Positions 769 to 57,600 of a DNA stretch of 64,000 bases are shown here, in pieces. Each line of letters opens with the position of its first letter. The first letter of the stretch is position 1. The stretch is taken from the IMG/VR virus record IMGVR_UViG_3300036761_003567, positions 32,001-96,000 of that record. One strand, given 5' to 3'. The notes beneath the pieces are model-generated. The model was not told where the DNA came from. It worked only from the letters and a program-made list of their open reading frames with translations, and ran no database searches. A program made the translations under genes and the position numbers. The DNA comes from a virus.

Positions 769-2226
769 TTACGGTTGAGGCGTGGTAGACGACGACGTTG
801 AAGATGAACTCGAAGTTGGCCTTCGTGTCGAGGACGAGGATGAGGTCCTGTAGCTCATGCCGCTACCCGAAGTATAGCTTCCGCCCTTTTCAACGAACGC
901 AGGAATGACGGCGCCCCTTTCCGGAGGTATGAAGTCGCCCTGGATGCCGCAGGGCCCGTCGCCCACGTTCGGGCACCAGAAGAATTCCGCCTGGCAGCAT
1001 TGTTCCGGCGGCGGCGGGTCCAACAGGATCTCGAATGGGAGCGGCGTCTCGGCATTCGTAAACCAGTCGAACGTGAAGGACTGATAGTGTGCCAGGTCGA
1101 CGCAGCAGGATGCTGGTTGCCAATTCGGCAGATCCAGGGGCGGCGGCGTGAAGTCAGGCGGCGCGAAGAGGAACGACCAGATCGGCTTGCAGGACTTCAT
1201 GGTTACGGCAACGGCACAGAAGAGCGCTTCCCGGATGCCGCCAATGGGCATCGAATTAGACGATGGCGAGAGGTCGCTGACGCAGATGTCCCTCGGAAGC
1301 GTAGCCTTGACGAGGTACATCGTGCTCGAGATGGGCGATTTCCGCATTGATATGACGGCAGAAGTCGCCTTGATCGAGGCGTCATCAAAGAAACTCGTAA
1401 CGACTTCCAGGAAGCGAGTTCCGTCCTGTCCCGCCTGCCCTTTTGCGCCCTTCTGTCTTGCCTTAAACCGCCAGTCAGTCAGATTGCCGATATTACCCGT
1501 GAGCTTGACGGTTCCAGTAACGGCCCCCGTGGCGAAGATGAGGTCGCTCGAGGGATCAACGCCGATTGTCTCATCAACGACATTCACGGTAGAACCGGTT
1601 CCGCCGAGTGGTACCACGAATTCAATTGCGTACTCCGAAGCCTGACCTGATCTGAACAGCCTAACCGAAATGTCGGTTTCGATAGGCGTACCAACTAGCG
1701 CGTCGATCTTGATCGTATCCGGCTGTACGAAGACTGGCGTCTGGAATTCTTCGGGCGCCGCCGGCGTTCCGTCCTTCCCCGCGTCGCCTTTCTCGCCCTT
1801 TGGACCCTTGCATCCCACGCAGCAGCGGCTCATAACATTGTGGAAGAGCCGTGCCTTATCGACCTCGATGCGGAGGTTGGTGGACCCGTCGTCCAGCTTC
1901 TCTACGGTGAAGGCAATGAGCCTGTCGGACGAATAGAAATAGTAATAGTACGGTGAGGCGCTGTCCGTCCTGATCTTGAAGGCTTCGAAGGACGTGCCCC
2001 CTTTGATGAGATCCTGGACGAGCTTCAACAGCTTATAGATGTCGGGGGAGACGAGGCCGGATTCCTGCTCGGTGACCACCTGAAACGCGCGCAGGAGACC
2101 CCTTGCGTTCCAAGTCTTCGTGGAGCCGTTATACTCGAAGATGTTCCCGAAGAGGTCGGCTATTGCGTCGCCGTCCTTCGGACTGAGGGGCAGCTTCCGT
2201 ACGAATGGTGGATAAATGGCAGTCAT
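769..2226 (-). CDS. Probable virion/tail-fibre-like protein with collagen triplets, Cys-rich C-terminal part and Ser/Thr tail
   Basis: GPKGEKGDAGKDG and GAKGQAGQDG triplets; ends SSSSSTSSSTTPQP. Confidence 0.55.
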   Translation of the reverse strand: MTAIYPPFVRKLPLSPKDGDAIADLFGNIFEYNGSTKTWNARGLLRAFQVVTEQESGLVSPDIYKLLKLVQDLIKGGTSFEAFKIRTDSASPYYYYFYSSDRLIAFTVEKLDDGSTNLRIEVDKARLFHNVMSRCCVGCKGPKGEKGDAGKDGTPAAPEEFQTPVFVQPDTIKIDALVGTPIETDISVRLFRSGQASEYAIEFVVPLGGTGSTVNVVDETIGVDPSSDLIFATGAVTGTVKLTGNIGNLTDWRFKARQKGAKGQAGQDGTRFLEVVTSFFDDASIKATSAVISMRKSPISSTMYLVKATLPRDICVSDLSPSSNSMPIGGIREALFCAVAVTMKSCKPIWSFLFAPPDFTPPPLDLPNWQPASCCVDLAHYQSFTFDWFTNAETPLPFEILLDPPPPEQCCQAEFFWCPNVGDGPCGIQGDFIPPERGAVIPAFVEKGGSYTSGSGMSYRTSSSSSTRRPTSSSSSTSSSTTPQP

Positions 2227-2426
2227 CAGTTTATCTTTTCAGGGACCAGTTCGAGCGTCCATCCCTTCTTGCGGCAATAGTCCTCGACCTGGCTTATCTG
2301 CCATCCGATCATGTACTTGACGATAGGCGGGGCTCTATGGACGACTTTATCTACCGAGATGCCAGCAGTGAAGTGAGGAGCCAGGATGCGGCACAGCACA
2401 AATACACGCCTCCCCCTCATCCGCAT
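2226..2426 (-). CDS. Small hypothetical phage protein
   Basis: 66 aa; stop overlaps the next start; APPIVKYMIGW...YCRKKGW. Confidence 0.55.
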   Translation of the reverse strand: MRMRGRRVFVLCRILAPHFTAGISVDKVVHRAPPIVKYMIGWQISQVEDYCRKKGWTLELVPEKIN

Positions 2427-2439
2427 GGGAGAAAGGCAG

Positions 2440-3085
2440 GATAAGAAAATCCTATCCCGCGAAAGACGTGAGAAGAGGAGCTGGCGCGGGATCTGATGAG
2501 GAGCCCAGGATGGCCCAGGCTATGTTCCCATTGTCCCCTCCGTACATGCGGCCACATGGTCCCAATGTGCATCGCACCAGTGGGTTTGTTCGGCCTGTAC
2601 GGCGCCAGCTCTTCTTCGTCACGTCCAGTTCTCCATTACGACCTTCAGGAAGGACAGTTGCCTCATGGCTTCCAGCAGCCGCCATGAGGGCAGTCCAGCC
2701 ATCCAGCCGACGGATGTCGCACTTCACGGTGGGACCCGTATTCCCGGCCACCATGACTCGGCAGAGGCCCTATCCGCAGCTCCCGCTGCAGGAGCTCTTC
2801 CATGCGTGCTGTACCGGGCTATGAGGCATTGAGTTCGCCCGGGGGCCTCCGTCCTGCCGAGATTCTACGATGCCGTCGTGGCAAAGGACCCGTCGCTTGA
2901 ACCGGCTTGTCAAGGTCAAGCCCACGCTGGCTTACTCCGTCGGTCTCATTCCACCGACATCTTTCAGCCAGCGCTCTTGTCCGCACTCCTCTGACCGGGT
3001 CGCGGGCGGACATGGAACGTTTTGGAAACCTGCCGCTTTCGCCCTCTTGTGGCAAATGCCCTTTTCTGGCGGCGGCGTCTCTTAT
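2440..3085 (-). ncRNA. Candidate large structured non-coding RNA or leader (~650 nt)
   Basis: No convincing ORF; many nested inverted repeats (2465-2487/2602-2625, 2757-2770/2843-2861, 2660-2669/2681-2689, 2925-2932/2966-2973); strand inferred from purine-rich loops. Confidence 0.55.
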
Positions 3086-3129
3086 ATACGTTTACACCGG
3101 CTACCCGCTTCCTCTCGTATTTCATCAAC

Positions 3130-3747
3130 ATGAAGGTGGAAGAACTCAAGTTTGGCGCGAAAGCCAAGGTCGTTAAGACGCTAGATGGCCTATCAGATAA
3201 AAGAAGATCTTCGTTTATAGGCCAAATCGGAGTCATCGTTGGCTTCTTTGCCCTAGATAACGCCATCGATAAAAAGACGAGATTCTCCGTCTCCCTGCGA
3301 TTTGATAACTCCTTAGGCATTGAAGAGTTCGATATGTGTGAGCTCGAACTAGATGCCGGTCCAGATGCCCTAATAAAAGCGATTGCAGAATTGGGCGGAA
3401 TCGAACAGAATAATAAGGTTTTCGTCGATGTGGCCGGTAAAGGCGATACGACGACAATTTCGAATGCTCTTGAGATAGTCCAGACTCAGCCATGGCTGGC
3501 CAGCGGAGCAATCCAGCCCATCGGAATAGCAGCTCAGCCCATCAAGCCAGGCGAGAGCGGATTCGTGAAGTTATTCGGCACTTTTGCAGAGGAGACGGAC
3601 CCTGAGAAATTAAAGAAAATGTCTGACCAATTCGGCTACGCAGGGGCTGTCGGCATCGACGGATTCGGCAACCCGATCGTCATCCCTCCGAAGCGTCCAC
3701 AGAAAAATAAGCCAGGCGAACTCGGGGAGAGAAAAGTCGAGGCATGA
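3130..3747 (+). CDS. Patchwork protein: SH3/KOW-like N-terminus, virion-like motifs, C-terminal PGELGERKV tag
   Basis: ATG 3130 just after GTATTTCA; VDVAGKGDTTTISNAL, IGIAAQPIKPGESGFV. Confidence 0.7.
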   Translation: MKVEELKFGAKAKVVKTLDGLSDKRRSSFIGQIGVIVGFFALDNAIDKKTRFSVSLRFDNSLGIEEFDMCELELDAGPDALIKAIAELGGIEQNNKVFVDVAGKGDTTTISNALEIVQTQPWLASGAIQPIGIAAQPIKPGESGFVKLFGTFAEETDPEKLKKMSDQFGYAGAVGIDGFGNPIVIPPKRPQKNKPGELGERKVEA

Positions 3748-5267: not shown

Positions 5268-5289
5268 AAATCGTCCGTACTCATTGCGG

Positions 5290-5520
5290 AATGGCCCTGT
5301 GCCTCATTCGTATGGCCGAAAATGAGGCACGAACGGGGAGAAAGGCCATATTCATCTCGAAAGAGGCGTCCCTCGGACGGATGCGCGATTTCACGATCGC
5401 GGGAGGACAGCCGGTCCCCGGCGGGGAGGAGTCCGGGCCGGAATCCGTAGGTAGCCAGTGATTGCGCTGGCCTGATTGAGCGCCCCGAATCCGGCCATCC
5501 GTCCGAAGGACGCCTACTTG
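5290..5520 (+). promoter_or_regulatory. Structured 5' leader of the dnaE N-terminal gene
   Basis: 20-bp stem 5364-5383/5496-5515 with one mismatch; hairpin 5299-5308/5321-5330; inner hairpins. Confidence 0.5.
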
Positions 5521-5528
5521 GGTGATGC

Positions 5529-6878
5529 GTGGCAGACCCGACTGACCGAGACAAGCAAATCGAGGCGGCCGAGAAGGCCTACCCAGGCCCGAAGGACTTC
5601 GTCCACCTCCATTCTCATTCCGTATTCTCGCCATTGGACGGCCTTCCTGATCCTGAGGATTACGCCAAGGAATGTCAGCTCCGCGGATTCCCTGCTATGG
5701 TCCTGACGGACCACGGCAGCATGGGAGGAATTCCGGATGCCTATCTGGCTGCAAAAAGCGCGAAGGTAAAGTTCATCGCGGGCTGCGAGATCTACTTCAA
5801 CGACAAGCACCTCGAGTGGGCAGAGAAACAGAAGCTCGGTATTTCTATCGGCACCATCAAGGCGCAGGACGCAGAACTACGCGACGAATATGTCCGCAAC
5901 AGGCACGTGACCGTGCTTACGAAGAACATGGCCGGCTACAGGAACCTGGTCATGATGCTCACGAACGCCTGGGAAATCGGGCATTATTACAAGCCCAGGA
6001 TCTGGCTGGACATCATGAAGCAGCACCAGGAAGGTCTAATCATCCTGTCCGGGTGCCTGAATGGCCCTATCTGTCATTATCTCCGGAAGGATAATACGAA
6101 GAAGGCGATGGAGTACATCAAGAAGTTCAAGGACATCTGGGGAGATGACTATTACCTCGAAGTCCAAATGCCTGGTAAGGAAATCCCGGACGGCGTAAAG
6201 ACCTTCATCAAGCTCATGACCATCGCGAAGTCAGTAGGCTTCAAGGCAGTCCTGACGAACGATACGCATTACCTGAGGCGGGAGGACTTCCAGGTCCAGA
6301 AGCTCATGATGGCCATCGACCAGAAGCTGAGGGTCGATGACCCGAATCTCTTCCACGTGAATTCGGACGAGCAGTTCTATAAGACGCGGGCGGAACTAAG
6401 GCAGACTTTCCAGGAACAGGGGTACGCCTATGGCGGACACATTACCCTGAAGGACTTCGAAGCCGCCTGTGATAACGCGCTAGAGGTCGCCCAGAAATGT
6501 GAGGGCTTCAAGCCGGACACGAGCCTGAAGCTTCCGGAAGTGCCCGACGCGGATAAACAGCTCGTCGCCCTGACGCTCCAGGGGCTCCGCCGGATCAATA
6601 AGCATGAAGATGAGGTCTACGTCGCCCGTGCGAAGCGGGAACTCAAGATGATCATCGAGAAGGGCTTCAGCTCTTACTTCCTCATCACGCGGGATCTGAT
6701 CGCCCACTCAAGGAGCCTTGGCTTCGAAGTGGGGCCTGGTAGAGGCAGCGTGGGAGGCTCGCTCGTGGCGTATCTAATCCAAATAACGACGATAGACCCC
6801 ATCGTATTCAAGCTCAATTTTGAAAGGTTCATCAGCCCGTCGCGCGGCGGCAACCTCCTTAGGGTGACCATGTCATGA
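5529..6878 (+). CDS. dnaE: DNA polymerase III alpha (DnaE) piece A: PHP domain plus N-terminal palm
   Basis: FVHLHSHSVFSPLDG, LTDHG, GCEIY, YYKPRI, TNDTHY, GPGRGSVGGSLVAY, FERFISPSR; stops before PDID. Confidence 0.95.
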   Translation: MADPTDRDKQIEAAEKAYPGPKDFVHLHSHSVFSPLDGLPDPEDYAKECQLRGFPAMVLTDHGSMGGIPDAYLAAKSAKVKFIAGCEIYFNDKHLEWAEKQKLGISIGTIKAQDAELRDEYVRNRHVTVLTKNMAGYRNLVMMLTNAWEIGHYYKPRIWLDIMKQHQEGLIILSGCLNGPICHYLRKDNTKKAMEYIKKFKDIWGDDYYLEVQMPGKEIPDGVKTFIKLMTIAKSVGFKAVLTNDTHYLRREDFQVQKLMMAIDQKLRVDDPNLFHVNSDEQFYKTRAELRQTFQEQGYAYGGHITLKDFEAACDNALEVAQKCEGFKPDTSLKLPEVPDADKQLVALTLQGLRRINKHEDEVYVARAKRELKMIIEKGFSSYFLITRDLIAHSRSLGFEVGPGRGSVGGSLVAYLIQITTIDPIVFKLNFERFISPSRGGNLLRVTMS

Positions 6879-7929: not shown

Positions 7930-8308
7930 TTGGCAGAAGATCGCCGAATTCGCGCGCAAGAAAGTTGCAACGCTTTCCAAGGAGCATGCGACCCGGCTTG
8001 AATTCGAGATCAAGGAAATAGACAAACAGGGCGCGAACGACTACTGGATAAACCTGCTGAAGTCCATGCAGAAGTTCGAAGCGAACACCAACGGCCTCGT
8101 CCTTCCATTCCTCCTGGGCATCACGCCGGTCGACCCGGTCGATTGTGAATATGTTTTCAAAATTGATGAGACTGGTGAAGAAGATGATATTATGCGGCTC
8201 GTGCTAGACAATGGTAAGACAATATCGGTACCATCACGAGCGCTGATTAAGACGATAAATGGACCCATAATCGCGAAAGATTTGAAAGTTGAAGATGAGC
8301 TGACGTAA
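7922..8308 (+). CDS. dnaE: DnaE piece B: degenerate palm segment plus N-intein-like fragment
   Basis: RLEFEIKEIDKQG..Y...LLGITPVDP followed by Hint-like RLVLDNGKTISV...TINGPIIAKDLKVEDEL. Confidence 0.7.
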   Translation: MSDWQKIAEFARKKVATLSKEHATRLEFEIKEIDKQGANDYWINLLKSMQKFEANTNGLVLPFLLGITPVDPVDCEYVFKIDETGEEDDIMRLVLDNGKTISVPSRALIKTINGPIIAKDLKVEDELT

Positions 8309-9157
8309 AGTTGTCACATGTTTTAAATCTCTCTCTGTCATAACGCCAAAAGAATGGCGTTTTTTTGAGCACCACCGGCGTAATGCGGGTAATTTTCTCT
8401 TGCAAGATAGCCACATTGCGACACCCATGCGGTCTAAATTATTAGGTTTCTTGCCGGATATATATTTAGAATACTTTATTTCAATGATTAGGCGCTTATT
8501 AATCAGTAAATCTGGGACCATGAAGAATTCATTGCACTCTATTTGTAATGGTTCGTATCTTAGCGAGTGGACATCGCCTAATGATGCAAGAAGTTTTACG
8601 GCCTTCGCTTCCAGGGATGACTTAACTCTAAAAAGACCAAATCTGGTACGTATCGTTTGCACACGCGGCGATGTGGCAACGTAGTGCAAAGCGCTTATCT
8701 TTGACAAATGCTTTCTGTAATCGCCATAACGCATGTTGAGCGTGGCAATTCTTTTCCTGTTTGATTTTGGATTTTGAATAGAATACGCAACGCCGTAACG
8801 CTTCCGATGCGTCTTAATTATTCTCTCCCAAACGCCTGGTAGTTGAGTGTTGTGCGTAACGCCCAAATGTTCTTTTAGGGATTGCCGATAACGCGCATAC
8901 CCGGATTTGCTCTGCATGTAGTGCTCAGAGCCGTACCGTGACTTAAAAGTTCGCCTTCTATGGTCATCTATCTGTTTGTATATAGTCCTTTTGTCCTTAC
9001 AAATTCCATGCCTCTTCAAGGCGCGAACAACAGATGAGGTGCCGCATCCGACTCTTTCTGCTATCTGTATCTGTGAGAGGTTTTGGTCGACATACGCGTA
9101 TTTCAGATATGAAGAATTGAGCCTCTCACGCAAAGTTGACGTGGATTTTCTACCCAT
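8234..9157 (-). mobile_element. Free-standing homing endonuclease-like gene (HTH, RYGV-type repeats, TnsA-like PD-(D/E)XK nuclease) splitting dnaE
   Basis: AT-rich and antisense; SSLEAK...RYEP...VPDLLINKRLIIEIK; N-terminal LSQIQIAERVGC. Confidence 0.75.
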
Positions 9158-9169
9158 GGGGTATATTTG

Positions 9170-9313
9170 ATGAAGATTGTTAAGATAAACATCATTCGAG
9201 GGAATGTCCGGAAAGTCAGCGGTGGTGCCTATAACGCCAGCGGGATCACGGTCCTACCACAAGTCGGAATCCCGCACCGCGTTGAGTACCACGCTGACCT
9301 TCCGGACATATAG
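9170..9313 (+). CDS. dnaE: DnaE piece C: C-intein-like fragment plus DLPDI
   Basis: Manual translation MKIVKINIIRGNVRKVSGGAYNASGITVLPQVGIPHRVEYHADLPDI* (below the ORF-track cutoff). Confidence 0.7.
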   Translation: MKIVKINIIRGNVRKVSGGAYNASGITVLPQVGIPHRVEYHADLPDI

Positions 9314-11403
9314 ATGTGGATCTCCAGCCTGCCGCACGCCCCCTTATTAGGCAGTACGCCACAAAGAAATATGGGATGGAGAATGTCTGTAGCGTAGGCC
9401 TCTGGCAGACCTACAACCCAAAGCTCGCCTTGCAGGATGCGGCTCGGGCACTCGGAGCTGACCATCACGAAATCCTGAACATAACCAAGGAGCTTCCGGA
9501 AGACTTCGATGAAATGTCCAAGGAGGACGCACTCAAGGAGTTCGACGAGCTAGCCACTTACTATAAGGCGAATCCACACATCGTCGACATGGCTTATCGG
9601 ATCGTCGGCCGCATCAAGACGCAGGGCCGGCACGCCGGAGGCCTCATCATTTCGTCCGTCCCCATCAGGGAATATGTGCCCCTGATGAAGCTCGGCGGCG
9701 TGGAGTGGACGACGGCCTGGACCGAGGGCAAGAACACGCAGCTCAGCAAATTCGGCTTCGTCAAATTCGACATGCTCGGACTCAAGACGATCCAATACAT
9801 CGCCAACGCCTTGAAGCTCATCGAACAGAACCGCGGCGTCAAGATCGATTGGGAGAAGATCCCGCTGGATGATAAGGATACGCTTGCGCTTGCGGCCAGC
9901 CTGAAGACGGATTCGACGTTCCAATTCGATACGGATCTGGCCAAGAGTATCATCCTCCGCGGCGGCGTCAAGAGCTTTAACGATCTGATGGTCTATACGT
10001 CACTCGGCCGCCCCGGCCCCATGCCGCTTATTGAGAAATACGTAGAGCGGCGTGACGATCCGAAACAGACATGGCGGAATGAAATTCATCCGAAGCTGGC
10101 GGAAATACTTGGAGAAACGTTCGGCGTCTGCGTCTATCAAGAGCAGCTCCAGCAAGTCTGGATCGACGTCTGCGGCTTCACATTCGCGGAGGCAGAAGAG
10201 GCCCGCAAGATCATCGCCAAGAAATGGCAGGACAAGCTACCTGCACTCGGCCAAAAGGTCGTGAAAGGCGCGGTCCGATTGTTGGGCGGCAAGAAGGCGG
10301 AAGAGCTCTGGCAGACCATGGTCACCTTCGGCCGCTACGCCTTCAACATGGCTCACGCGACGGCTTACACTATCATTGCCTACCGGACGCTCTGGCTGAA
10401 GACGCATTACGCCCCGGAATGGTGGGCCGCCGTCATGTCGGACTGCGGTCGGGACAGGCTCGTCCGGTACATCGGGATCGCAAAGTCGGAAGGCGTTCAA
10501 CTGGGGACCCTCGACTGCAGGACGCTCACAGAGAGCTTCACGGTCTCGGGCGACAGAGTGCTGCCAGGCCTCAACCTGGTCAAGGGCATCGGCACGTCCT
10601 CCAAGAAGCTTGCGGAGAACAATGCCGACTACAAGTCCGTAGACGAATTCATCGAGAAGAACGGGAAGGGGCGCATCGTCATGGAGCGCCTCATTAAGCT
10701 AGGCGGCTTCGATAAGATCTTCCGGAACAGGAAGACGCTCTGGCTCTGGTATCTCTGGAAGCACGCCGGCGAGAAGCAGACGAAGGACCTGGTAAAGGCC
10801 ACGTTCGCCTGGCCGGAGAATCGCGTCGTCGCCGAGAGGCAGAAGCAGATCCAGGCCTTCAGAAAGCTTTACCCCAAGAAGAAAGTGCCGCCGAAGCTGG
10901 AGAACTGGAACCCGAAGATCGATCCGACGTTCGAGGATTTCGCCAAGAAGTTCAACGAAGACTTCATGGACCGGGAAATCCTAGCCTTTGAGAAGGCTCA
11001 TCTCGGGTTCTACTGGTCATCTCCTATGAGCCAGTTCGTGCACAAGAACCTGACAATAGCCCAGGCCAAGTACTCGAATAACCTGGAATGCGTCATCGAC
11101 TCTATTACCACGAAAAAGTCCGAGAAGACCAAAAACGAATATCTGAAGCTCACGATTACGGACGGCATCGAGACGGCGCCGCTCGTCGTCTGGTCCGATG
11201 CCTTGTCTGACAAGACGAACGCCGAGGCGCTTGCCGTCGGCGGAGGCATCTCCGTAAAGGTAGCCTGGTCAGACAAGTACAGGAGCTTCTCCATAGCTTC
11301 AGGGTCCATGATCATCCCGCTCATCAAGAAGGGGCTCGAGCCAGACGCGCCGGTTCTACCTGCCCCGGATGAATTAGAGGAAGCTTATGCTGCTGACGAG
11401 TAA
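9310..11403 (+). CDS. dnaE: DnaE piece D: catalytic palm, fingers, HhH and OB domains
   Basis: (I)DVDL, GRHAGG, KFDMLGL, GVCVYQEQ, YAFNMAHATAY; the frame is closed by TGA 7 codons upstream of GTG 9316. Confidence 0.93.
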   Translation: MDVDLQPAARPLIRQYATKKYGMENVCSVGLWQTYNPKLALQDAARALGADHHEILNITKELPEDFDEMSKEDALKEFDELATYYKANPHIVDMAYRIVGRIKTQGRHAGGLIISSVPIREYVPLMKLGGVEWTTAWTEGKNTQLSKFGFVKFDMLGLKTIQYIANALKLIEQNRGVKIDWEKIPLDDKDTLALAASLKTDSTFQFDTDLAKSIILRGGVKSFNDLMVYTSLGRPGPMPLIEKYVERRDDPKQTWRNEIHPKLAEILGETFGVCVYQEQLQQVWIDVCGFTFAEAEEARKIIAKKWQDKLPALGQKVVKGAVRLLGGKKAEELWQTMVTFGRYAFNMAHATAYTIIAYRTLWLKTHYAPEWWAAVMSDCGRDRLVRYIGIAKSEGVQLGTLDCRTLTESFTVSGDRVLPGLNLVKGIGTSSKKLAENNADYKSVDEFIEKNGKGRIVMERLIKLGGFDKIFRNRKTLWLWYLWKHAGEKQTKDLVKATFAWPENRVVAERQKQIQAFRKLYPKKKVPPKLENWNPKIDPTFEDFAKKFNEDFMDREILAFEKAHLGFYWSSPMSQFVHKNLTIAQAKYSNNLECVIDSITTKKSEKTKNEYLKLTITDGIETAPLVVWSDALSDKTNAEALAVGGGISVKVAWSDKYRSFSIASGSMIIPLIKKGLEPDAPVLPAPDELEEAYAADE

Positions 11404-17304: not shown

Positions 17305-17750
17305 ACAGACGATCTCTTTTAAAAGCCCTCACACTCCTCCCATTTGCACCCCTGCTCGGACGCAAGACAGAAGCAGCCATTCCGAATGGAGAAGACGACC
17401 TAGCCTATTGGCGGCGCATTCCGAATGGAGAAGACGACCTAGCCTATTGGCGGCACAAAGTAGAGCATTGCGAATCGATTGGGGACCATAAGAAGGCAGA
17501 GCTTTACCGCAGGAGACTGCTGCTCGCCGAGGACGTCGCTCTAATCCACGACATCCAACGGGCCAGAAATGGTCGGAAATTCTCTATGCACGTGGAACGT
17601 GTTGGTCGGGAAACTCTTTGCGTCACGATTCCAGCCGACCTATCGCCCCAGGAGGCCGTGAAGTATCTCGATTCCATAAAGAGACACTTTCGAAAAGTTG
17701 GGTGTCGCAATGCACGACGAGGTCTGGCACAAGCATATCTATTTAGCTGA
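17301..17750 (+). CDS. Tat-signal protein carrying a T4 gp20 portal-like fragment
   Basis: MNRRSLLKALTLLPFAPLL; LAEDVALIH.IQRA..RKF...DLSPQEAVKYLDSIKRHFRK. Confidence 0.6.
   Translation: MNRRSLLKALTLLPFAPLLGRKTEAAIPNGEDDLAYWRRIPNGEDDLAYWRHKVEHCESIGDHKKAELYRRRLLLAEDVALIHDIQRARNGRKFSMHVERVGRETLCVTIPADLSPQEAVKYLDSIKRHFRKVGCRNARRGLAQAYLFS
17378..17454 (+). repeat. In-frame tandem duplication with 39-bp period
   Basis: CATTCCGAATGGAGAAGACGACCTAGCCTATTGGCGGC twice (IPNGEDDLAYWR). Confidence 0.95.
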
Positions 17751-17759
17751 ACAAAAAGA

Positions 17760-19172
17760 ATGTCAGACGAACAGACCCTTCACGATAAGGATTCTCGCAC
17801 GTTCGGCGAGAACGAAGAACAAGCCATCATAGCGCTAGCCTTCGACCTCCCGGAGTTTTTTAGCTCCGTCGTGCCCTACCTCCAGATCGATCACTTCAAG
17901 CACATCCCGTCCAAGTTCCTGTTCGCCATCATCAAGAAACTCATAGAGAAGCACCGGGTATCGCCGACCCGCGGCCTGGTAAAGGACATTGCCAGGAAGA
18001 ATCTCACGGTCGATGACGATTATGAGCCGATCATCTCCCTCATCGACAAGCAGTCTGATCCCCGGGAAGCTCCGGTTGTCAAGCAGTCCGTCGTCGAATT
18101 CGCCAAGCGTCGCGCCCTGGGACTCCTCTACTCCAAGGAAGTCATGGAGGAAGTCTCGCGCGGAAATTATGACCGCGTGAACGAGATCGTCGAATCAGCC
18201 AGGAAGATCACCGACGTCAGCCAGACGGGAATCTGGTTCTTCGAGCGCGCTCACGAGCTCTTCACGGTGGAGAATGAGATCAAGTTCACGACGGGCTTCC
18301 CGAAGCTGGATAGGTACATCAACGACGGCGGGCCTACGATAAGCGACGTCTTCGTCTGGATGGCTCCGACTAACGTCGGCAAGACTTACATGCTCTGCAA
18401 CACGGGCGAGGCTAACGTGCGGGCCGGGCACAACGTCGTACACTTCTCCTTCGAAGGAGACATCAAGAAGACCCAGGTCAGGTACGCCGGCGCATTCACC
18501 AATGTGCCGGTCGTCACGCATATGCATCGGATGGCGCACAAGGATCAGATCACGCAAATCCTGAGCCGATGCAAGGCCCATTATGGAGCGGAACTCGTCC
18601 TCTACAAGTTTCCTGCGGACGAGGTCAGCGTAGACACCCTCCATCAGGTCATGGACTTCCTGAGGCGGAACAAGGGCTTCAATCCGAGAGTCGTGATTAT
18701 CGACTACCTGGAACTCATGGTCTCGCGGAACAAGTTCATGAACCGGGACGATTACGCTAGACAGAAGTCCATCTCCACGGAGCTGTGCGGATTCGCCGAC
18801 AAGGAAAACGTGGCAGTCTTCACGGCGACGCAGACCAACCGGTACGGCATGAACGAGGAAGAGCAGTCCAGCAAGAAGACGGCCGGGACTGGCGGCGGGA
18901 AGTCAATCGACCTGGATAAGATCGCAGAGTCCTTCGGGAAATCTATGCCGCTTTCCTACGTCGTGAGTATCAATCAGACGAAGAACGAATACGAGGCCGG
19001 CTACGACGCGAGCCGGGCTGAAAACACAGCCGCCCGAGCGAGACTCTTCATCGCCAAGAATCGGAACGGTCCGAAGTCCGAGACAGTAGCTATCCGTATG
19101 AACTACGTCACCATGAAGGCCAAGGAGGACGAGCCGGCCGTCAACATTACGACGGTAGGCGGGAATTCCTAA
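17760..19172 (+). CDS. dnaB: Replicative helicase (DnaB/T4 gp41-like)
   Basis: TTGFPKLD, APTNVGKT, FSFE, IIDYLEL, TATQTNR, IAKNRNG. Confidence 0.93.
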   Translation: MSDEQTLHDKDSRTFGENEEQAIIALAFDLPEFFSSVVPYLQIDHFKHIPSKFLFAIIKKLIEKHRVSPTRGLVKDIARKNLTVDDDYEPIISLIDKQSDPREAPVVKQSVVEFAKRRALGLLYSKEVMEEVSRGNYDRVNEIVESARKITDVSQTGIWFFERAHELFTVENEIKFTTGFPKLDRYINDGGPTISDVFVWMAPTNVGKTYMLCNTGEANVRAGHNVVHFSFEGDIKKTQVRYAGAFTNVPVVTHMHRMAHKDQITQILSRCKAHYGAELVLYKFPADEVSVDTLHQVMDFLRRNKGFNPRVVIIDYLELMVSRNKFMNRDDYARQKSISTELCGFADKENVAVFTATQTNRYGMNEEEQSSKKTAGTGGGKSIDLDKIAESFGKSMPLSYVVSINQTKNEYEAGYDASRAENTAARARLFIAKNRNGPKSETVAIRMNYVTMKAKEDEPAVNITTVGGNS

Positions 19173-23792: not shown

Positions 23793-23875
23793 CGAGCCAG
23801 CTCCCACTGGCTTGACCTAGCTGGCCCGCAGGTTCGTGCTTGCGGGCCAGCAGCGTATATAAGTCAGGGTGAACA

Positions 23876-24445
23876 ATGGGTAATTCGTGGAAAGTCGCTG
23901 AGCGAAAAGTAGCCCGTCTCCTGGGTAAGTGGGCTTGTGGAAATGAAGATGCCCTCCGCCGGATGCCCCTCCAGGGGCGCATGATGGAAGAGTATCTCGG
24001 CGACATTATAGTAAACGAGGCGGCTCCGGAAGATGTCCGAAAGAAAGGCGCCGCCTTCCTCAGCAAGTTCATGATCGACGTCAAGAAGAGGATAACCAAG
24101 CAGAGCGCTACGGGATGGCATTTCGAGCAGTTTCTGACCAGTCCGAAGCACCAAATATTTGCCTGGTGGCGAAAACTCGAGGGAGCGGCAGAGAAGTACC
24201 AGAAAATGCCACTTCTGATCATTACCAAAGGGGACAGAAACTGGTTTATATTGGTAGATGAAAAATTGTATGGTAGGGTCAAAGTCAGAAGGCAGGGTCT
24301 AATGCCGAATTCCATCACTATTAAGTGCCTGGAAGCAAAGACACTTATGGCAATGAATCTCTTTGACTTCCTGAAGATACCCGTGGAGGCCATATGGCCT
24401 GTGGAGCCTGCGGCAAGCGCCGAGAGCAGCAAGGCGCAAGCGTAG
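23876..24445 (+). CDS. Holliday-junction resolvase-like PD-(D/E)XK nuclease
   Basis: K..ERKVA..L..W, RR.P..G, GDI, IDVKKR, WW, PLLI. Confidence 0.7.
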   Translation: MGNSWKVAERKVARLLGKWACGNEDALRRMPLQGRMMEEYLGDIIVNEAAPEDVRKKGAAFLSKFMIDVKKRITKQSATGWHFEQFLTSPKHQIFAWWRKLEGAAEKYQKMPLLIITKGDRNWFILVDEKLYGRVKVRRQGLMPNSITIKCLEAKTLMAMNLFDFLKIPVEAIWPVEPAASAESSKAQA

Positions 24446-28158: not shown

Positions 28159-29227
28159 ATTGATGTGCTCGGAGCATTCTTTTAAATTCAATTAACGCGT
28201 GATAGCTCCGAGCCAAATTGACCCACACGCATACCAATTGGATGTTATCCTTTAGATAGCCAGTCGAATTCTCTATCCTGTCGATGCTACAGGAATTTAG
28301 ATGACCTCCCTGGAGTCTCATCGGCACTTTCGTGATAGCGCATCGTCCTTTTTGACTCTTATAAAGATCACATAAGAAATCGAGCGTTAAGTTATGGTTA
28401 AAACCCTTTCGTCTTTTGAATATTTTGCTATGAATACGTTGTCTTATTACTCGGAATAAATGTCTGAAGTATGTTCTGATTTTGGTATCATTGGTATTGT
28501 ATTCCCGACCGCCGCCATTTCTAAACTGTTTTAGTGTTTCTCTAAATTCTCTGGCCGTATGTCTTCGACGGCCCAAATTTACCCATTTGCATACCAGTCT
28601 AATATTTCCTTTGTTATACCCCATATTGTTATCGATGCGGTCAATAGATACTGAAAGAAGATGTCTAAAGCAGTGTGTCATTTTAATGCCGGTGGCTTTA
28701 CATCTTCCATTTTGACGTTCCCATAGCTGCATTAGGTATTCAATGCCAAAATCGCAAGGTTTTCGTAGCCTTGCCAGAGCGGATCTGAGGAAGTTTTCCG
28801 GAGTGCTCTCTCTGTGCTGTTTTATGGAGTCGTTGTGCTGCCGTCGCCTAGCCGGGCTACTTTGCCTTTCTCTACTTTCTAGTCTTTTCTTTAATTTCCT
28901 ACACTCATAACAAATATTCTTGCGTTTTGGTCTGAAGCGGGATAACTCGGTAGTGCCACATACGTTGCACCTTGGGGTAAGATTAGTTTGGCTTCTTGAT
29001 AAATGTTCCCTTGCGCGGCACCCACAATGTGGCGGGTATGATTTTGCCACATAATTCACTTCTGATATGCACTTTACGCATTTATTACCACATTCGCAGT
29101 AGAATTTATAGAAAACGCGCTTTGGTTCATGTTGCATATGAAAAGGGCGACTCACCACTTTTAGATGGCCGACGATAGTACCTATCTTTAGTCGCCGATG
29201 CTGCGAATCTATTGGCAAAAAGTACAT
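28136..29227 (-). mobile_element. Homing endonuclease-like gene with two HNH-type domains
   Basis: AT-rich and antisense; two Q.GRC..T...M...SIDRI.N..GY...N..LVC.WVN units; CECG and CNVC Zn sites. Confidence 0.75.
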
Positions 29228-29234
29228 AGATGAT

Positions 29235-49907: not shown

Positions 49908-49961
49908 TGTGTGCTGGCCAATAAGAAGCTTGACCAGCTAGTCCGCAGTACTTATCCCACC

Positions 49962-50125
49962 GTTCGAAGCCTCCGCGTACGCGCGTGACGCGTCCAGAAT
50001 CTCAAAAAGCTGATTCTCTCAAAGCTGATTCTCTCAAAAGCTGATTCTCTCAAAAGCTGATTCTCTCAAAAGCTGATTCTCTCAAAAGCTGGTCAGCGGC
50101 ATAGTTCGAAGCCTCCGCGTACGCG
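49962..50125. repeat. About 5.5 tandem 15-17-bp repeats flanked by 22-bp direct repeats
   Basis: (CTCAAAAGCTGATTCT)n at 50001-50091; GTTCGAAGCCTCCGCGTACGCG at 49962-49983 and 50104-50125. Confidence 0.95.
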
Positions 50126-50149
50126 ATGCGCTCGCCGAGAAGCGATCCG

Positions 50150-50430
50150 AAACGGGACCGGCCGCCCGCCCCCCGCCCGGGCCCCTGGGGGCGGGGGGCA
50201 GCACGCCCCCCGGGCCCGCCGGCCCGGCCCACCCCCCGCCCCCGGCGGGGCGGCGCGACCCCCACCCCCGGCCCCAGCCAAACCCCCCCCCCCACCGGGG
50301 GGACCAGCAGCACCCGGACCCCAGCCCGCCGCCGTCCCGTCTCGGCGGCGCGCCGGAGTCCGCCGCGTCCGGCCCCGTGCCACACCTCCGCGTGTCCGGC
50401 GGTGTGTCTCGGCCCAGCCGGTCCGGCAAA
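50150..50430. other. Extremely GC-rich non-coding tract with C runs and inverted repeats
   Basis: e.g. GCCCCCCGCCC...GGGCGGGGGGC and CCCCCCCCCCCACCGGGGGG. Confidence 0.8.
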
Positions 50431-50446
50431 CCAACGGAGGCTGCCA

Positions 50447-50755
50447 ATGGCAAGCGCCACCGCCGTCCGCCCCGTCGTCTCCGCCCTCGTCGGCCCCGTG
50501 TCCGCCCGCCCCCGCCCGCTCGTCCGCCCCGTCCGGCCGGACTTCCGGCTCTGCGACCTCCGCGTCCCCCCGCTGACCGAGCCCCAACTGCTGGCCCGCT
50601 ACCCGCACATGATCCCCGGCACGCTCCGGCGCGACCCCGTCGCCAACAAGAACGCGGTCGACATCCGGTGCGCGTGCGGAGCGGTCCGGATCGTGTACAC
50701 CTCGGACCTGTTCCACGTCCGGGCGTGCCGCGCCTGCAAGGCCTCCGGCAAGTAG
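50447..50755 (+). CDS. Zn-finger early protein, paralog 1
   Basis: YPHMIPGT...IRCACGAVRIVYTSDLFHVRACRACK. Confidence 0.75.
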   Translation: MASATAVRPVVSALVGPVSARPRPLVRPVRPDFRLCDLRVPPLTEPQLLARYPHMIPGTLRRDPVANKNAVDIRCACGAVRIVYTSDLFHVRACRACKASGK

Positions 50756-52860: not shown

Positions 52861-53370
52861 GCTCATGGTCCAACGGGCGCGGCCGGACAAACGGGCGGAC
52901 CGGAGGTGACCAAACCGGGAAACCGGCGAAGGGGCCTCGCCCGCCGGCCGCGCTTTTGGGTCCTGATCCCGCGGAGCGAAAGCTCCCTAGTCTCACATGA
53001 CCAGAGGAGGGCAAATGCCCCGAAAGTGTCGATCGCCCCCGGCCAATCCGCCTGAGAGATCCGCCGTGAGCCAGAGTGCCACGGCCGGTTGAGGCACGTC
53101 AGGCACCCGAACAGGGGTAGGCGAATGCCGAGAACCCCAGAAAGGTAGAGATCGAATACTCCTTACATAGCGCCACCTCCAGAGTGCCCATATAAAGGAA
53201 CGGTTTGAAGATTTCTCGTTTCCCCGGGCAAGAGGTGGCGAACCGGTTCAGGACCGGCCTGACCGCGACGAGGACAGGACGTATAAAACCTGTCCGCTCC
53301 GGCTCCGCCAGGACACCGTTCATTCGGGTCTGGCGTCCCGTCGCGGGGAGATCGGCCCCTTTCCAGGAAG
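52860..53370 (+). ncRNA. Structured intergenic RNA cassette A
   Basis: Conserved stem 52860-52886/52944-52971 shared with cassette B; further hairpins. Confidence 0.55.
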
Positions 53371-54356: not shown

Positions 54357-54660
54357 GGCTCATGATCCAACGGGCGCGGGCTGGTATTCCGTAACGGAAG
54401 CAGGCAGGGAGTTGCCCCGCCGCCAGCCCGCGCTTTTGGGTCCTGATCCCGTGAGGCTTATGGGACGTCCGAGGACGAACGTGGACCTCCTGTTTGCTTC
54501 CAAGGCGCAGACCCAAGAAAGGAGGCCGGACCATGCGGTGAATGTGAAGGGAGGTGGCGACCCACTTCCGTCCCGTAGACCGGGCTGACCGCGACGACGC
54601 GCCAGGCCGTTAATTCGGGCTGGCCAACGGCGCCGCGAGTGGGCTGGTCTCCGATCTCTC
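54357..54660 (+). ncRNA. Structured intergenic RNA cassette B
   Basis: Stem 54357-54384/54423-54451 covaries with cassette A; shares TGACCGCGACGA and CCGTTMATTCGG. Confidence 0.55.
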
Positions 54661-57600
54661 AGTGTTATCAGGACGTCCTTACTCTTGTGTCTCTCCCGGA
54701 TCAGGAAGACCCGGGAATCTTGACGAACCGCAACTGAAATGGACACAACCCCGTGAGATCCCTTTGGGAGGAAGACAATGCGAGCCATAGACCTCAAGGT
54801 AGCCGTCCGGGTCGCGCTGCTGTACGGGATCCGCGGCTTTGCCAGGGCGGATGACACGGGCATCATCTCGCAGGACGAATCGCAGCAGGGGATGCGGGCC
54901 ATGCGCCAGTGGGAGAAGCTGCCCCTCGTCCTGCAGGGCGTGCTGGCCGTCCGGGACATGTTCGCGGCGGTGTGCTCCGATTTCAAGACATCGCCCGAGG
55001 AGTATGACGCGCTGATCCTCGAGTTCTTCGAGAAGGACTTCAGGCAGCCCCACGAAGGGGGCTAACCGAGCGGACCAACGTCGTGGACTCAATTAGGGGT
55101 TGGACCATGACCTTCGCCGAGACGCTCGCTGCAGCCATCAAGCTCCTGGGGCCAGACGACTCCGTGTGCGTCGGCGTGGACGCATGGAGCTACCCGGGCG
55201 GCGACACCCGCCTGACGTGGGACGTCTGGAGCGACAGCCGTCGCATGCACTGGTACGGATCGACGCCCGAGGCGGCACTCGCCGCCGTCCAGTCCACCTT
55301 GGACGAACTGGCGCACGACGCACATCTCCGGATCGAGGCCGTCCAGATGTAGTTCCGGATTCCCATTCCCCTCCCGTATTTCAGGAGTAGGCCCATGTTC
55401 CTGATCCGCGTGGTCGTAGCCCGTCTCTGGGCGGTCCTGACCGGCTTGGCGATCCGCAGCAAAAGCGGCAGGAACGCGTGCGCCTACTGCCGCGGGGCGG
55501 GGTGCGTGCCCGATTCGGGCCTCTTCTCCGAGGCGTGCCCGCTGTGCGGCGGAACGGGAACGTCCTCCCAGGAGGTGGCAAGGTGAAGCCGTCCGAACTC
55601 AAGGAGGGCCAGCACACCGAGATCCGGACCAACGGGGTCTTGTGTGCCCAGTTCACCTTCGAATATGGGTGGCTGGAACTCGTCATGTGGGCGGATGACC
55701 AGGTCGTCGACGAACACATCCCAGACCACCTCCTGGCTGACAAGGTCATGTCCATCCGCTTCAACTACGGGACGTCCTTCCCCCGCAATCCCGAGGGTCC
55801 GAACCCGCTCACGCCCGAGGGTGCGGACGAAGCCTGGGTGCAGATCGAGGGAGACCTGCCACAGATCAAGGAGGCAATGTGATCTATACACAACAAGCTC
55901 TTGGTGAAGTACGACGAAAAAGCGGGATCTCCCTCAAGTCGATATGTGAGAGGAACGGATGGGCCACGACCGAGGCCCTGGCGCTGGCGAAGGACGCCTC
56001 TCTGGCCACGCTGGACGAGGTCGAGCGGCGCTACCTGGACGCGGCGAAGGCCTGCGTCGGGAAGGGGCACAACATCGAGGCGTCGTACGTCCAGGAGCTG
56101 ACCGGCAACGTCATGCGGATCCTGAGACAGGAGGTGAGGGGATGAGGAACCTGGATTCATCCTCCCTGCCAGAGCCTCAATTAAGGGCGGGAGAGATCCT
56201 GATCCCATCCGGTCGCGTCGGCGACGTCGACCTGTTTTCGGCCGCCAACGACGAAGACTTCTGCTCAAGCAAGGAAGAGAAGCTCAGGGTCCGGCAGCGG
56301 AACAGGAAATCAAGAAGGGGGTGACGGGATGAAGGTCATGGTCCGACTCGACAAGCACAAGCAGAGAGCCGTCCGGGAGCAGAACTTCAGCCTGGCGATC
56401 AAGATCCGCTGCGAGATGCGCGCCCGGAGCTATTGGACCCTGTCCACCCTGCTCAGGTCGCTCCTGGGACTCGATCCCTTCGAGAACAGGCGGATTGAGA
56501 AGGCAGCCGAGGCCCTCGACCTCCTGGCGATCAGGAACGCCAGCAAGGCCGGCACCACCCACGAAGCCCTGTTCGGCGACGGCGACAACACCTACGGCGT
56601 CGACCTGGGAGATTTGAAGCTCCTGTAAGGAGATCAAGGTGAAGAAGGCAAAGTACTCTCCCATGGATGACCTGCGCCAGATCGTCAGCTGCATGGACGA
56701 GTACGGGCAGCTCGAGCACGAGGTGGAGGTCATACTCTGGAACGAGGACCCCAAGATGGGACAGGTCCAGGTGAAGCTCATCGACATGACGCTCGAGGAT
56801 GGGGGCAAGAACCCGGCCTTCACGCTCTCCTGGGCCGGGCGCTTCTGCGGCAGGCCGATGCTCCGGATCAAGGGGCCCAAGATCGACGTCCTGATCTCCC
56901 CCATCCCCAAGTTCGTGCTGGCTATCCTGATGGAGGCGTAGCCGACCCGGGAATCTTGAAGAACCAAATGGGAGGTGGCATGATCGAGACCAAGACCAGC
57001 AGCAGGGACCAGGCGGTCGAGTGGCTGGAGAAGGCCATCCCGAACTTCGCCATCCGAGTGGCTCCCGTCTACCAGGCGCTCAACTGGACCTGGTGGATGA
57101 GCCCCGTCTCGCCGGATGCGGCTGCGATCGAGCGGGCGCTGCGGGAGCTGATGACCCACGTAAGGCAGGGGAGCACCTCTGCCGCGACGGGCGGGCTGGT
57201 GGTCGAGCTGACCGAGAAGTGCGGGACGCTGGAGGCGCGGCTGTCGATGCAGGTCGATGAGGAGCGCAAGTTCACAGTGGGAGGTGCCCGATGAAGGCCT
57301 CTTGGAAACCCGAGGGAAGCCATGAGTTCCTGTTCGACTTCGAGCTGGAAGGGGGAGTGAACGACGAGCACATGTTCACGATCGCCTTCAACGCGACGCC
57401 ATTCTCCCCCGCCAAGACGCAGGGAGACCCGGACGACTGCCACGACGCGGAGGGAGGGGAGATCGAGGACCTGACGGTCTTCATCAATACCTACAGTGGC
57501 CCCATGAACGAGGCCTGCACTGTCCACGAGGTCCCTGAGTACCTGTGGCCCGCCCTGGGCTTCGACAGGAAGGTTCTGGTCCAGCAGTGCGAGGACCACG

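Follow-up and report, generated by a model that had tools for sequence, protein, structure and literature searches.

Large non-coding RNAs have been described from phages, and GOLLD (RF01998) and ROOL (RF03087) are conserved across many genomes, as, to our knowledge, are the known large phage ncRNAs in general. The polycistronic RNAs of phages T7 and lambda contain leaders and intercistronic hairpins which are processed by RNase III, and RNA II of ColE1 is a replication primer RNA. The PeSLs of T4-like phages are small composite terminator/promoter motifs with a hairpin upstream of a promoter (PMC2839356, PMC4122927). Of the T4 replication origins, oriF and oriG each consist of a promoter and its transcript and depend on an A+T-rich unwinding element that lies downstream; iterons are present at oriE (PMC3016281).

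The locus considered here lies in a 64,000-nt window (the whole stretch of DNA that was analysed), which spans bases 32001-96000 of a 107,223-nt IMG/VR record. Completeness of the record was estimated at ~29% by CheckV, which indicates a jumbo phage of roughly 370 kb. A small Gp23-like chimera was found in it, so that the phage may be T4-like. Between divergent genes of this fragment is a non-coding gap at 2400-3129. To the left of the gap, the minus strand carries a 66-aa ORF (2226-2426), p485 (769-2226), and a GT2 glycosyltransferase gene. The product of p485 has 485 aa, is Cys-rich, and contains collagen repeats; p485 is the first long leftward gene and was used as the synteny anchor. On the right, p205 (3130-3747, plus strand, 205 aa) is the first gene of a rightward unit that continues with a Volactin-like actin homologue and then DnaE, split around an endonuclease gene. 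The gap is the main divergence point of leftward and rightward transcription in the phage. DnaE (DNA polymerase III alpha) is distributed over at least two ORFs (5529-6878 and 9316-11403), with a 205-aa ORF and an opposite-strand HNH/TnsA-like endonuclease gene (8234-9157) between the pieces. In p205, a segment has been replaced or shortened between strains that are 98-99% identical (131 nt at 3371-3503 of the window versus 74 nt at 5772-5847 of strain L002).

Intergenic gaps in this genome have a median length of 56 nt, and seven reach at least 400 nt. Three of these seven are low-GC genes resembling homing endonucleases. Foreign codon usage and long ORFs with a GC content of 0.42-0.43 were seen at 8309-9166 and 28159-29234 of the window and at 17514-18510 of the genome, and the three low-GC (0.42-0.43) stretches are probably acquired genes of the homing-endonuclease type.

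An earlier note on this DNA described ~650 nt of non-coding sequence in a tightly packed region, which was borne out by codon usage, codon-position GC, and gene calls. Codon-usage log-odds were zero or below in all six frames over 2400-3000, whereas the flanking genes scored +10 to +30. GC at codon positions 1/2/3 was flat in the gap ORFs (0.61/0.60/0.58), in contrast to ~0.55/0.38/0.72 in real genes, the 66-aa ORF included. None of the gap ORFs is among the called genes of the window's own record, exact look-ups of seven of them were negative, and searches against Pfam (E up to 1) and PHROGs found no working gene. A conserved ORF had been named as an alternative account of the region, and no frame looks coding.

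An exhaustive phmmer search with a 100-aa minus-strand ORF of the gap returned ankyrin-repeat proteins. The likeness consists of a single 11-residue motif, DGWTALMAAAG (2670-2702, minus strand), located inside the hairpin H5 described below, and a G-x-T-x-PL motif follows 35 residues downstream. The phmmer scores represent this one motif summed across many repeats in the targets. For an ankyrin-repeat protein gene we asked for at least one complete 33-residue repeat by Ank models, a coding signal, and a foldable product. The candidate was rejected, as only 11 residues are alike, Pfam gave no match at E up to 1, GC1/2/3 is flat, and the AF2 model is disordered (pLDDT 36). The ORF is not a working gene; judging from its motif, it may have decayed from an ankyrin-repeat gene.

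The motif GTAT[AT]T[ACT]A has 34 matches in the 107 kb. An ATG ORF of at least 50 aa begins within the next 45 nt after 20 of the 34 (22.5% for random sites), and six stand exactly 5-6 nt before an ATG (1.1% for random sites). Some copies of GTATTT[ACT]A precede leaders with a Shine-Dalgarno site. This distribution suggests that GTATTT[ACT]A behaves like a phage promoter -10 element and that many mRNAs are leaderless. Copies of GTATTT[ACT]A near gene starts include those at 3117-3124, 13917, 14950, 35473, 36790, and 38593.

A promoter-like motif leading into the gap on the minus strand had been noted earlier and is present as GTATATAA (3089 to 3082), a variant of the genome-wide motif. It lies back to back with GTATTTCA (3117-3124, plus strand), which is located 5 nt upstream of the p205 ATG. 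No motif faces rightward into the gap, and the only gap-facing one is on the minus strand. The usual motif spacing would place the transcription start near G3076. The motif GTATATAA occurs twice, and the other copy (23855, plus strand) precedes an ORF at 23876 by 13 nt. At this site (23824-23862), 4 nt separate a GC-rich hairpin of 14 bp from the GTATATAA downstream of it, and hairpin and motif make up a terminator-promoter cassette that resembles PeSL elements.

The 66-aa ORF left of the gap likely has its true start at the GTG at 2399, giving a 57-aa product (p57), rather than at the annotated position 2426. The nine N-terminal residues of the 66-aa form vary among strains, the rest is conserved, and a Shine-Dalgarno sequence GGAGG (2413-2409) is found 9 nt upstream of the GTG, so that p57 with its ribosome site covers 2226-2413 on the minus strand. 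GC1/2/3 of p57 is gene-like, its stop and the p485 start share 1 nt, and its Shine-Dalgarno sequence is predicted to be paired in all folding contexts. The scan returned no intrinsic terminators or sigma-70 promoters, and before p57, no phage motif, sigma-70-like site, or terminator-like site was found. As p57 and p485 have no promoter of their own, the gap would be at least a ~680-nt minus-strand leader. Leaders of other genes in this phage are 0-40 nt long.

All helices listed in the earlier note are present in the gap. They are a closing stem of 23 bp with one bulge (2465-2471/2619-2625 and 2472-2487/2602-2617), a CGTACA/TGTACG helix (2541-2546/2596-2601), the closing helix of a multi-branch domain (2757-2770/2843-2861), and helices at 2661-2669/2681-2689, at 2904-2909/2917-2922, and at 2925-2932/2966-2973 with 2939-2944/2953-2958. 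The comparison with dinucleotide shuffles proposed in that note gave fold z-scores of -4.41 (plus) and -4.29 (minus) for the whole gap. The values were -7.1 (plus) and -5.5 (minus) for 2464-2626 and -7.9 (plus) and -7.1 (minus) for the hairpin at 2922-2976, while the hairpin at 2436-2460 was good on the minus strand only (-1.2 plus, -4.0 minus). The remaining stretches of the gap were weak on both strands (-0.7 to -3). Against the genome background, the 700-nt tile 2301-3000 came first among the 212 minus-strand tiles and 40th among the 212 of the plus strand. The 163-nt domain at 2464-2626 (domain 1) ranked second (plus) and fifth (minus) of 3352 tiles of its length.

The predicted untranslated RNA from the putative transcription start to the p57 start (2400-3076, minus strand) is ~677 nt long and highly paired. 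From 3076 to 2427, its predicted MFE is -301.7 kcal/mol, and most helices have a pair probability of at least 0.9. The first nucleotide of the putative transcript, G3076, is also the first of a 5'-terminal hairpin of 5+4+3 bp (H1, 3032-3076, pair probability 0.98-0.99). It is followed by the two-tier hairpin H3 (2924-2974, pair probability 0.97-0.99), in which 9 bp and 7 bp are separated by a symmetric internal loop and capped by an 8-nt loop. The multi-branch domain M (2701-2902, minus-strand z -2.6) contains the sub-domain closed by 2757-2770/2843-2861 and, on the minus strand, a GGGA tetraloop of the GNRA type at 2781-2784. Hairpin H5 (2652-2696) is indicated by the fold and by strain substitutions. 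Domain 1, the strongest element, is a 163-nt three-way junction with a closing stem of 23-24 bp. The last hairpin, H6 (2436-2460), has 11 bp with two G.U pairs and a UUU loop, is stable on the minus strand only, and, as modelled, could be an attenuator, terminator, or translational-control stem. H6 is followed by a pyrimidine-rich tail that immediately precedes the ribosome site of p57. The two elements with the strongest folding are close to perfect palindromes and would form equally in DNA.

The gap stands out by size and density of structure, not by kind, as other non-coding-looking stretches of this genome have z-scores of -3 to -5. Long GC-rich intergenic hairpins occur at 5268-5528 (z -4.05) and 9140-9330 (z -5.4), upstream of the first and third DnaE pieces, and 9140-9330 holds the most structured 163-nt tile among the 3352 scanned. 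The GC-rich, non-coding-looking gaps 52861-53204 and 54366-54777 have a 38-nt stretch in common (87% identity), and the plus strand of the latter has a fold z-score of -4.9. The region 49908-50598 (691 nt, 72% GC) has overlapping ORFs on both strands, no coding signal by genome codon usage, and z-scores of -2.9/-3.5; either a gene with an unusual composition or a further structured region may be present there. A covariance model of domain 1 found no further copy in the 107-kb record or in the relatives. We also considered domain 1 as a MITE-like element, which should have terminal inverted repeats, a target-site duplication, and more than one copy. Its termini are inverted, but the element is single copy without a flanking duplication, and the candidate was rejected.

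Strain variants of the gap were recovered from translations of spurious ORFs in short strain contigs, P0009 in the minus frame and P0059-P0063 in the plus frame, which demonstrates that variation in a non-coding region can be read from gene-caller artefacts in protein databases. Seven substitutions within 2510-2824 were deduced from amino-acid changes, at few and partly linked sites. Given as plus-strand changes and placed on the minus-strand fold, 2510 A>G and 2513 G>A (seen in both frames) fall in a tetraloop, 2585 T>A and 2587 T>G in an internal loop, and 2744 C>T in a hexaloop. The four variants in domain 1 are all in loops of the minus-strand fold. The changes 2666 T>C (assumed to be a transition, with W to R read as CGG) and 2681 G>A affect the stem of H5, where each turns a Watson-Crick pair into G.U in the minus-strand reading and into a C.A mismatch in the plus-strand reading. 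Scored on a fold predicted from the same sequence, all seven variants are compatible with the minus-strand fold (null mean 3.8, P 0.015, or 0.048 with neighbouring sites merged) and four of seven with the plus-strand fold (P 0.64). An eighth variant, in the extended forms of the 66-aa ORF, changes L to P (CTG to CCG) and implies U2438 to C, which turns a G.U into a G-C pair and strengthens H6. Together, the variants favour a minus-strand RNA fold, a modest but directional signal.

The right half of the gap yielded no variants in a protein search with ORF87(+). The 99% identical strain L002, from a metagenome scan, has no differences over 2220-3180. This was rejected as a sign of selection, as coding sequence of 2.4 kb differs at only one position.

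The earlier note had left the strand uncertain. H6, the tile rank, the promoter-like motif, and the variants all favour the minus strand, although the whole-gap z-scores remain similar on both. Considered together, these sequence features make it probable that leftward transcription of the gap yields a strongly folded RNA which precedes a small operon. The fuller reading, that the gap is a lineage-specific, highly structured, untranslated minus-strand RNA which serves at least as the p57-p485 leader, is our tentative preference, with chances that we put not far below even. Transcription would proceed leftward from GTATATAA, back to back with the promoter-like motif of p205, and starting from ~G3076, the RNA would form a geneless chain of ~677 nt consisting of H1, H3, the multi-branch domain, H5, domain 1, and H6. 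It would then reach the Shine-Dalgarno sequence and GTG of p57, which appears to be translationally coupled to p485. The function of such a leader would most likely be cis control of the p57/p485 operon. The 5' hairpin and the stacked helices may stabilise the message. Double-strand-specific RNases of the RNase III type can cut stems as long as that of domain 1, which would make this stem a possible cut site. Finally, H6 and the paired Shine-Dalgarno sequence may gate read-through into, or translation of, p57 and p485.

Outside its own strain cluster, the gap has no recognisable relatives. Its sequence was found only in strains that are ~97-100% identical within the gap, and neither blastn against phage sequences nor a search of genome contigs gave a homologue. 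IMG/VR scans with p485, p205, and the Volactin-like protein returned no close-range relative, and an alignment-based scan with p485 gave six related phage loci at 30-58% identity. No match to the gap, by sequence or covariance model, was found in the five to six related phages, one of which is represented by a complete genome of 370,804 nt. A DNA pattern search with the H3 stem had no match. Two other queries were discarded as chance matches, an 18-mer of a variant loop (two unrelated GC-rich contigs) and a 10+10 stem pattern (GC-rich bacteria).

Across the related phages, the locus is conserved as a divergence of DnaE-side and p485-side genes, and its content is not. In L003, the closest relative, the same locus consists of the GTATATAA-type motif GTATATAAT, ORF165 (165 aa), 612 nt of untranslated structured sequence, and the p485 homologue, an order that parallels the leader proposed for the gap. 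ORF165 has a weak match to initiators like lambda O, through phrog_678, "replication initiation O-like" (E 0.0014), and the 612 nt after it contain three direct and three inverted iterons of 16-19 nt as well as further long inverted repeats. The iteron core within L003:5885-6994 is AGGGGCAAGCTGACCT, and this region is, from its sequence, likely a replication origin. L007 has a 500-780-nt gap with modest structure at this position.

Lineage restriction of this kind, together with a GC content above that of the neighbouring regions, would also be expected of a functionless relic, i.e., a decayed ankyrin-repeat or ORF165-like gene retained as a spacer, in which pairing is incidental. The two ankyrin-like motifs agree with this, as does a weak likeness of 25 residues between ORF78(-) and L003 ORF165 (E 0.11). 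We nevertheless regard a relic as unlikely. Beyond the 11-residue motif, the repeat is unmatched, and neither the Pfam search nor the low pLDDT of the model recovers an ankyrin protein. Descent from ORF165 in particular was rejected, since the 25-residue match is not colinear. Moreover, decay does not make 23-bp stems at a z-score of -7, and the strain variants avoid breaking minus-strand pairs.

The same RNA could instead be a free-standing, trans-acting ncRNA of ~640 nt, running from 3076 to ~2436, ended or processed at H6 or at the domain 1 stem, and founder of a new class. This comes closest to the suggestion of a large phage ncRNA in the earlier note, of which the non-coding and structured part stands; independence found no support, given that the predicted RNA runs on into p57/p485. 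Size and modular architecture, the 5' hairpin beginning at the presumed +1, the strand-specific H6 with its pyrimidine-rich tail ahead of the p57 ribosome site, and variants that respect the fold would all suit a free RNA. However, no terminator-like site was scored, p57 and p485 would depend on the same transcript, and, in contrast to the breadth known for large phage ncRNAs, neither Rfam nor the five related phages contain a relative. We therefore hold a free-standing ncRNA to be rather improbable.

Kinship with GOLLD, ROOL, or another Rfam family, for which the earlier note had proposed an Infernal check, found no support, as the whole window had no match in Rfam 15 at the gathering threshold. 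Over 2200-3300, three chance-level matches appeared at E up to 10, the best with an E of 0.7. One match, to the type II hammerhead (RF02276; 18.8 bits versus a gathering score of 37, E 0.7), was inspected by hand and rejected. A hammerhead of this type has its conserved core (CUGAUGA ... GAAA ... cleavage-site UH) at a junction of three helices, with stems I, II, and III paired. In the match, stem II (GGAGCCC vs ..CCCGC) pairs no further than one bp, the 28 nt between GAAA and CUGAUGA are too short for stem III or stem I hairpins, and the predicted three-way junction lacks GAAA between the second and third helices. The gap RNA is thus an orphan outside known families, and not a proven new RNA class.

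The position of the gap raises the question of a replication origin, in which the minus-strand transcript primes or opens the DNA, or the hairpins act in single-stranded DNA. The gap coincides with the global minimum of cumulative GC skew in the 107-kb record (window 3128), and in G005, the relative with a complete genome, a local minimum at 250,361 falls in the syntenic divergent gap (250,079-250,860). DnaE is 2.4 kb from the gap, the same locus in L003 carries iterons and the weakly O-like ORF165, and T4 oriE, oriF, and oriG are likewise situated at divergence and composition switches (PMC3016281). With cleaner gene calls, however, skew tracks the coding strand (minus genes -0.046 on the left and -0.037 on the right, P 0.80), and the minimum therefore marks the main transcription divergence and is not independent evidence of an origin. 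A positional GC skew came from crude ORF calls, vanished with the cleaner ones, and was dropped as origin evidence. Within the gap, repeats are limited to two-copy matches of 10-14 nt, whereas an iteron origin has a cluster of direct repeats adjoining or within the initiator gene. The gap also lacks iterons, an AT-rich unwinding element (GC 0.58-0.64), and DnaA-box-like sites, and no O-like gene was found in the 107-kb record. A T4-type R-loop origin is not indicated either, as the promoter-like motif is followed by DNA of 58-64% GC. With 32% G, the RNA shows no more than a mild enrichment in this base. An origin in the gap thus appears as doubtful as a free-standing ncRNA. The global cumulative GC-skew minimum of G005 is a sharp V at 345,804 of its 370.8 kb, separate from 250,361.

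We give still less credence to the more specific proposal that the ~680-nt RNA is an origin transcript which replaced an iteron and O-like initiator module kept by L003. If true, the origin would be opened or primed by a GC-rich folded RNA, much as by ColE1 RNA II or a T4 R-loop, and this would represent a new replication start for a giant phage using DnaE.

An RNA from the plus strand, antisense to the leftward leader, is very improbable, since the slightly more negative z-score and the better tile rank of domain 1 on that strand are set against a 700-nt tile of ordinary rank, the lack of any rightward motif into the gap, the absence of H6, and three of seven strain variants that break plus-strand pairs.

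If the preferred reading, a structured leftward leader RNA, is real, it would rank with the longest structured untranslated leaders that have been seen, and this in a phage with leaders of 0-40 nt at its other genes. It would offer a testable handle on post-transcriptional operon control in uncultured jumbo phages, and the locus may offer one on where and how these phages start replication. If the gap is only a leader or a relic, its interest is local.

The gap resembles GOLLD and ROOL in being a multi-domain, paired, non-coding phage sequence of several hundred nucleotides. Unlike these, it has no model match at E up to 10, is confined to one strain cluster, has no tRNA neighbours (none in the whole window), and appears to form an RNA continuous with the downstream operon. 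With ColE1 RNA II it shares the form of a structured untranslated transcript of ~550-650 nt that could prime replication, but neither sequence nor family membership connects the two, a promoter for an antisense RNA like RNA I was not found, and G-richness is modest. As in T4 oriF, oriG, and oriE, a promoter-like motif leads into an untranslated stretch at a divergence point, and the syntenic locus of L003 has iterons; unlike at oriF and oriG, the DNA downstream of the motif is GC-rich and strongly paired. The PeSL cassettes likewise consist of intergenic stem-loops joined to promoters, whereas in the gap ~650 nt of structure lie downstream of the promoter-like motif. The RNase III-processed leaders and intercistronic hairpins of T7 and lambda are similar to domain 1 with its near-perfect, untranslated stem of 23-24 bp, although domain 1, as a 163-nt three-way junction, is larger than the classical sites.
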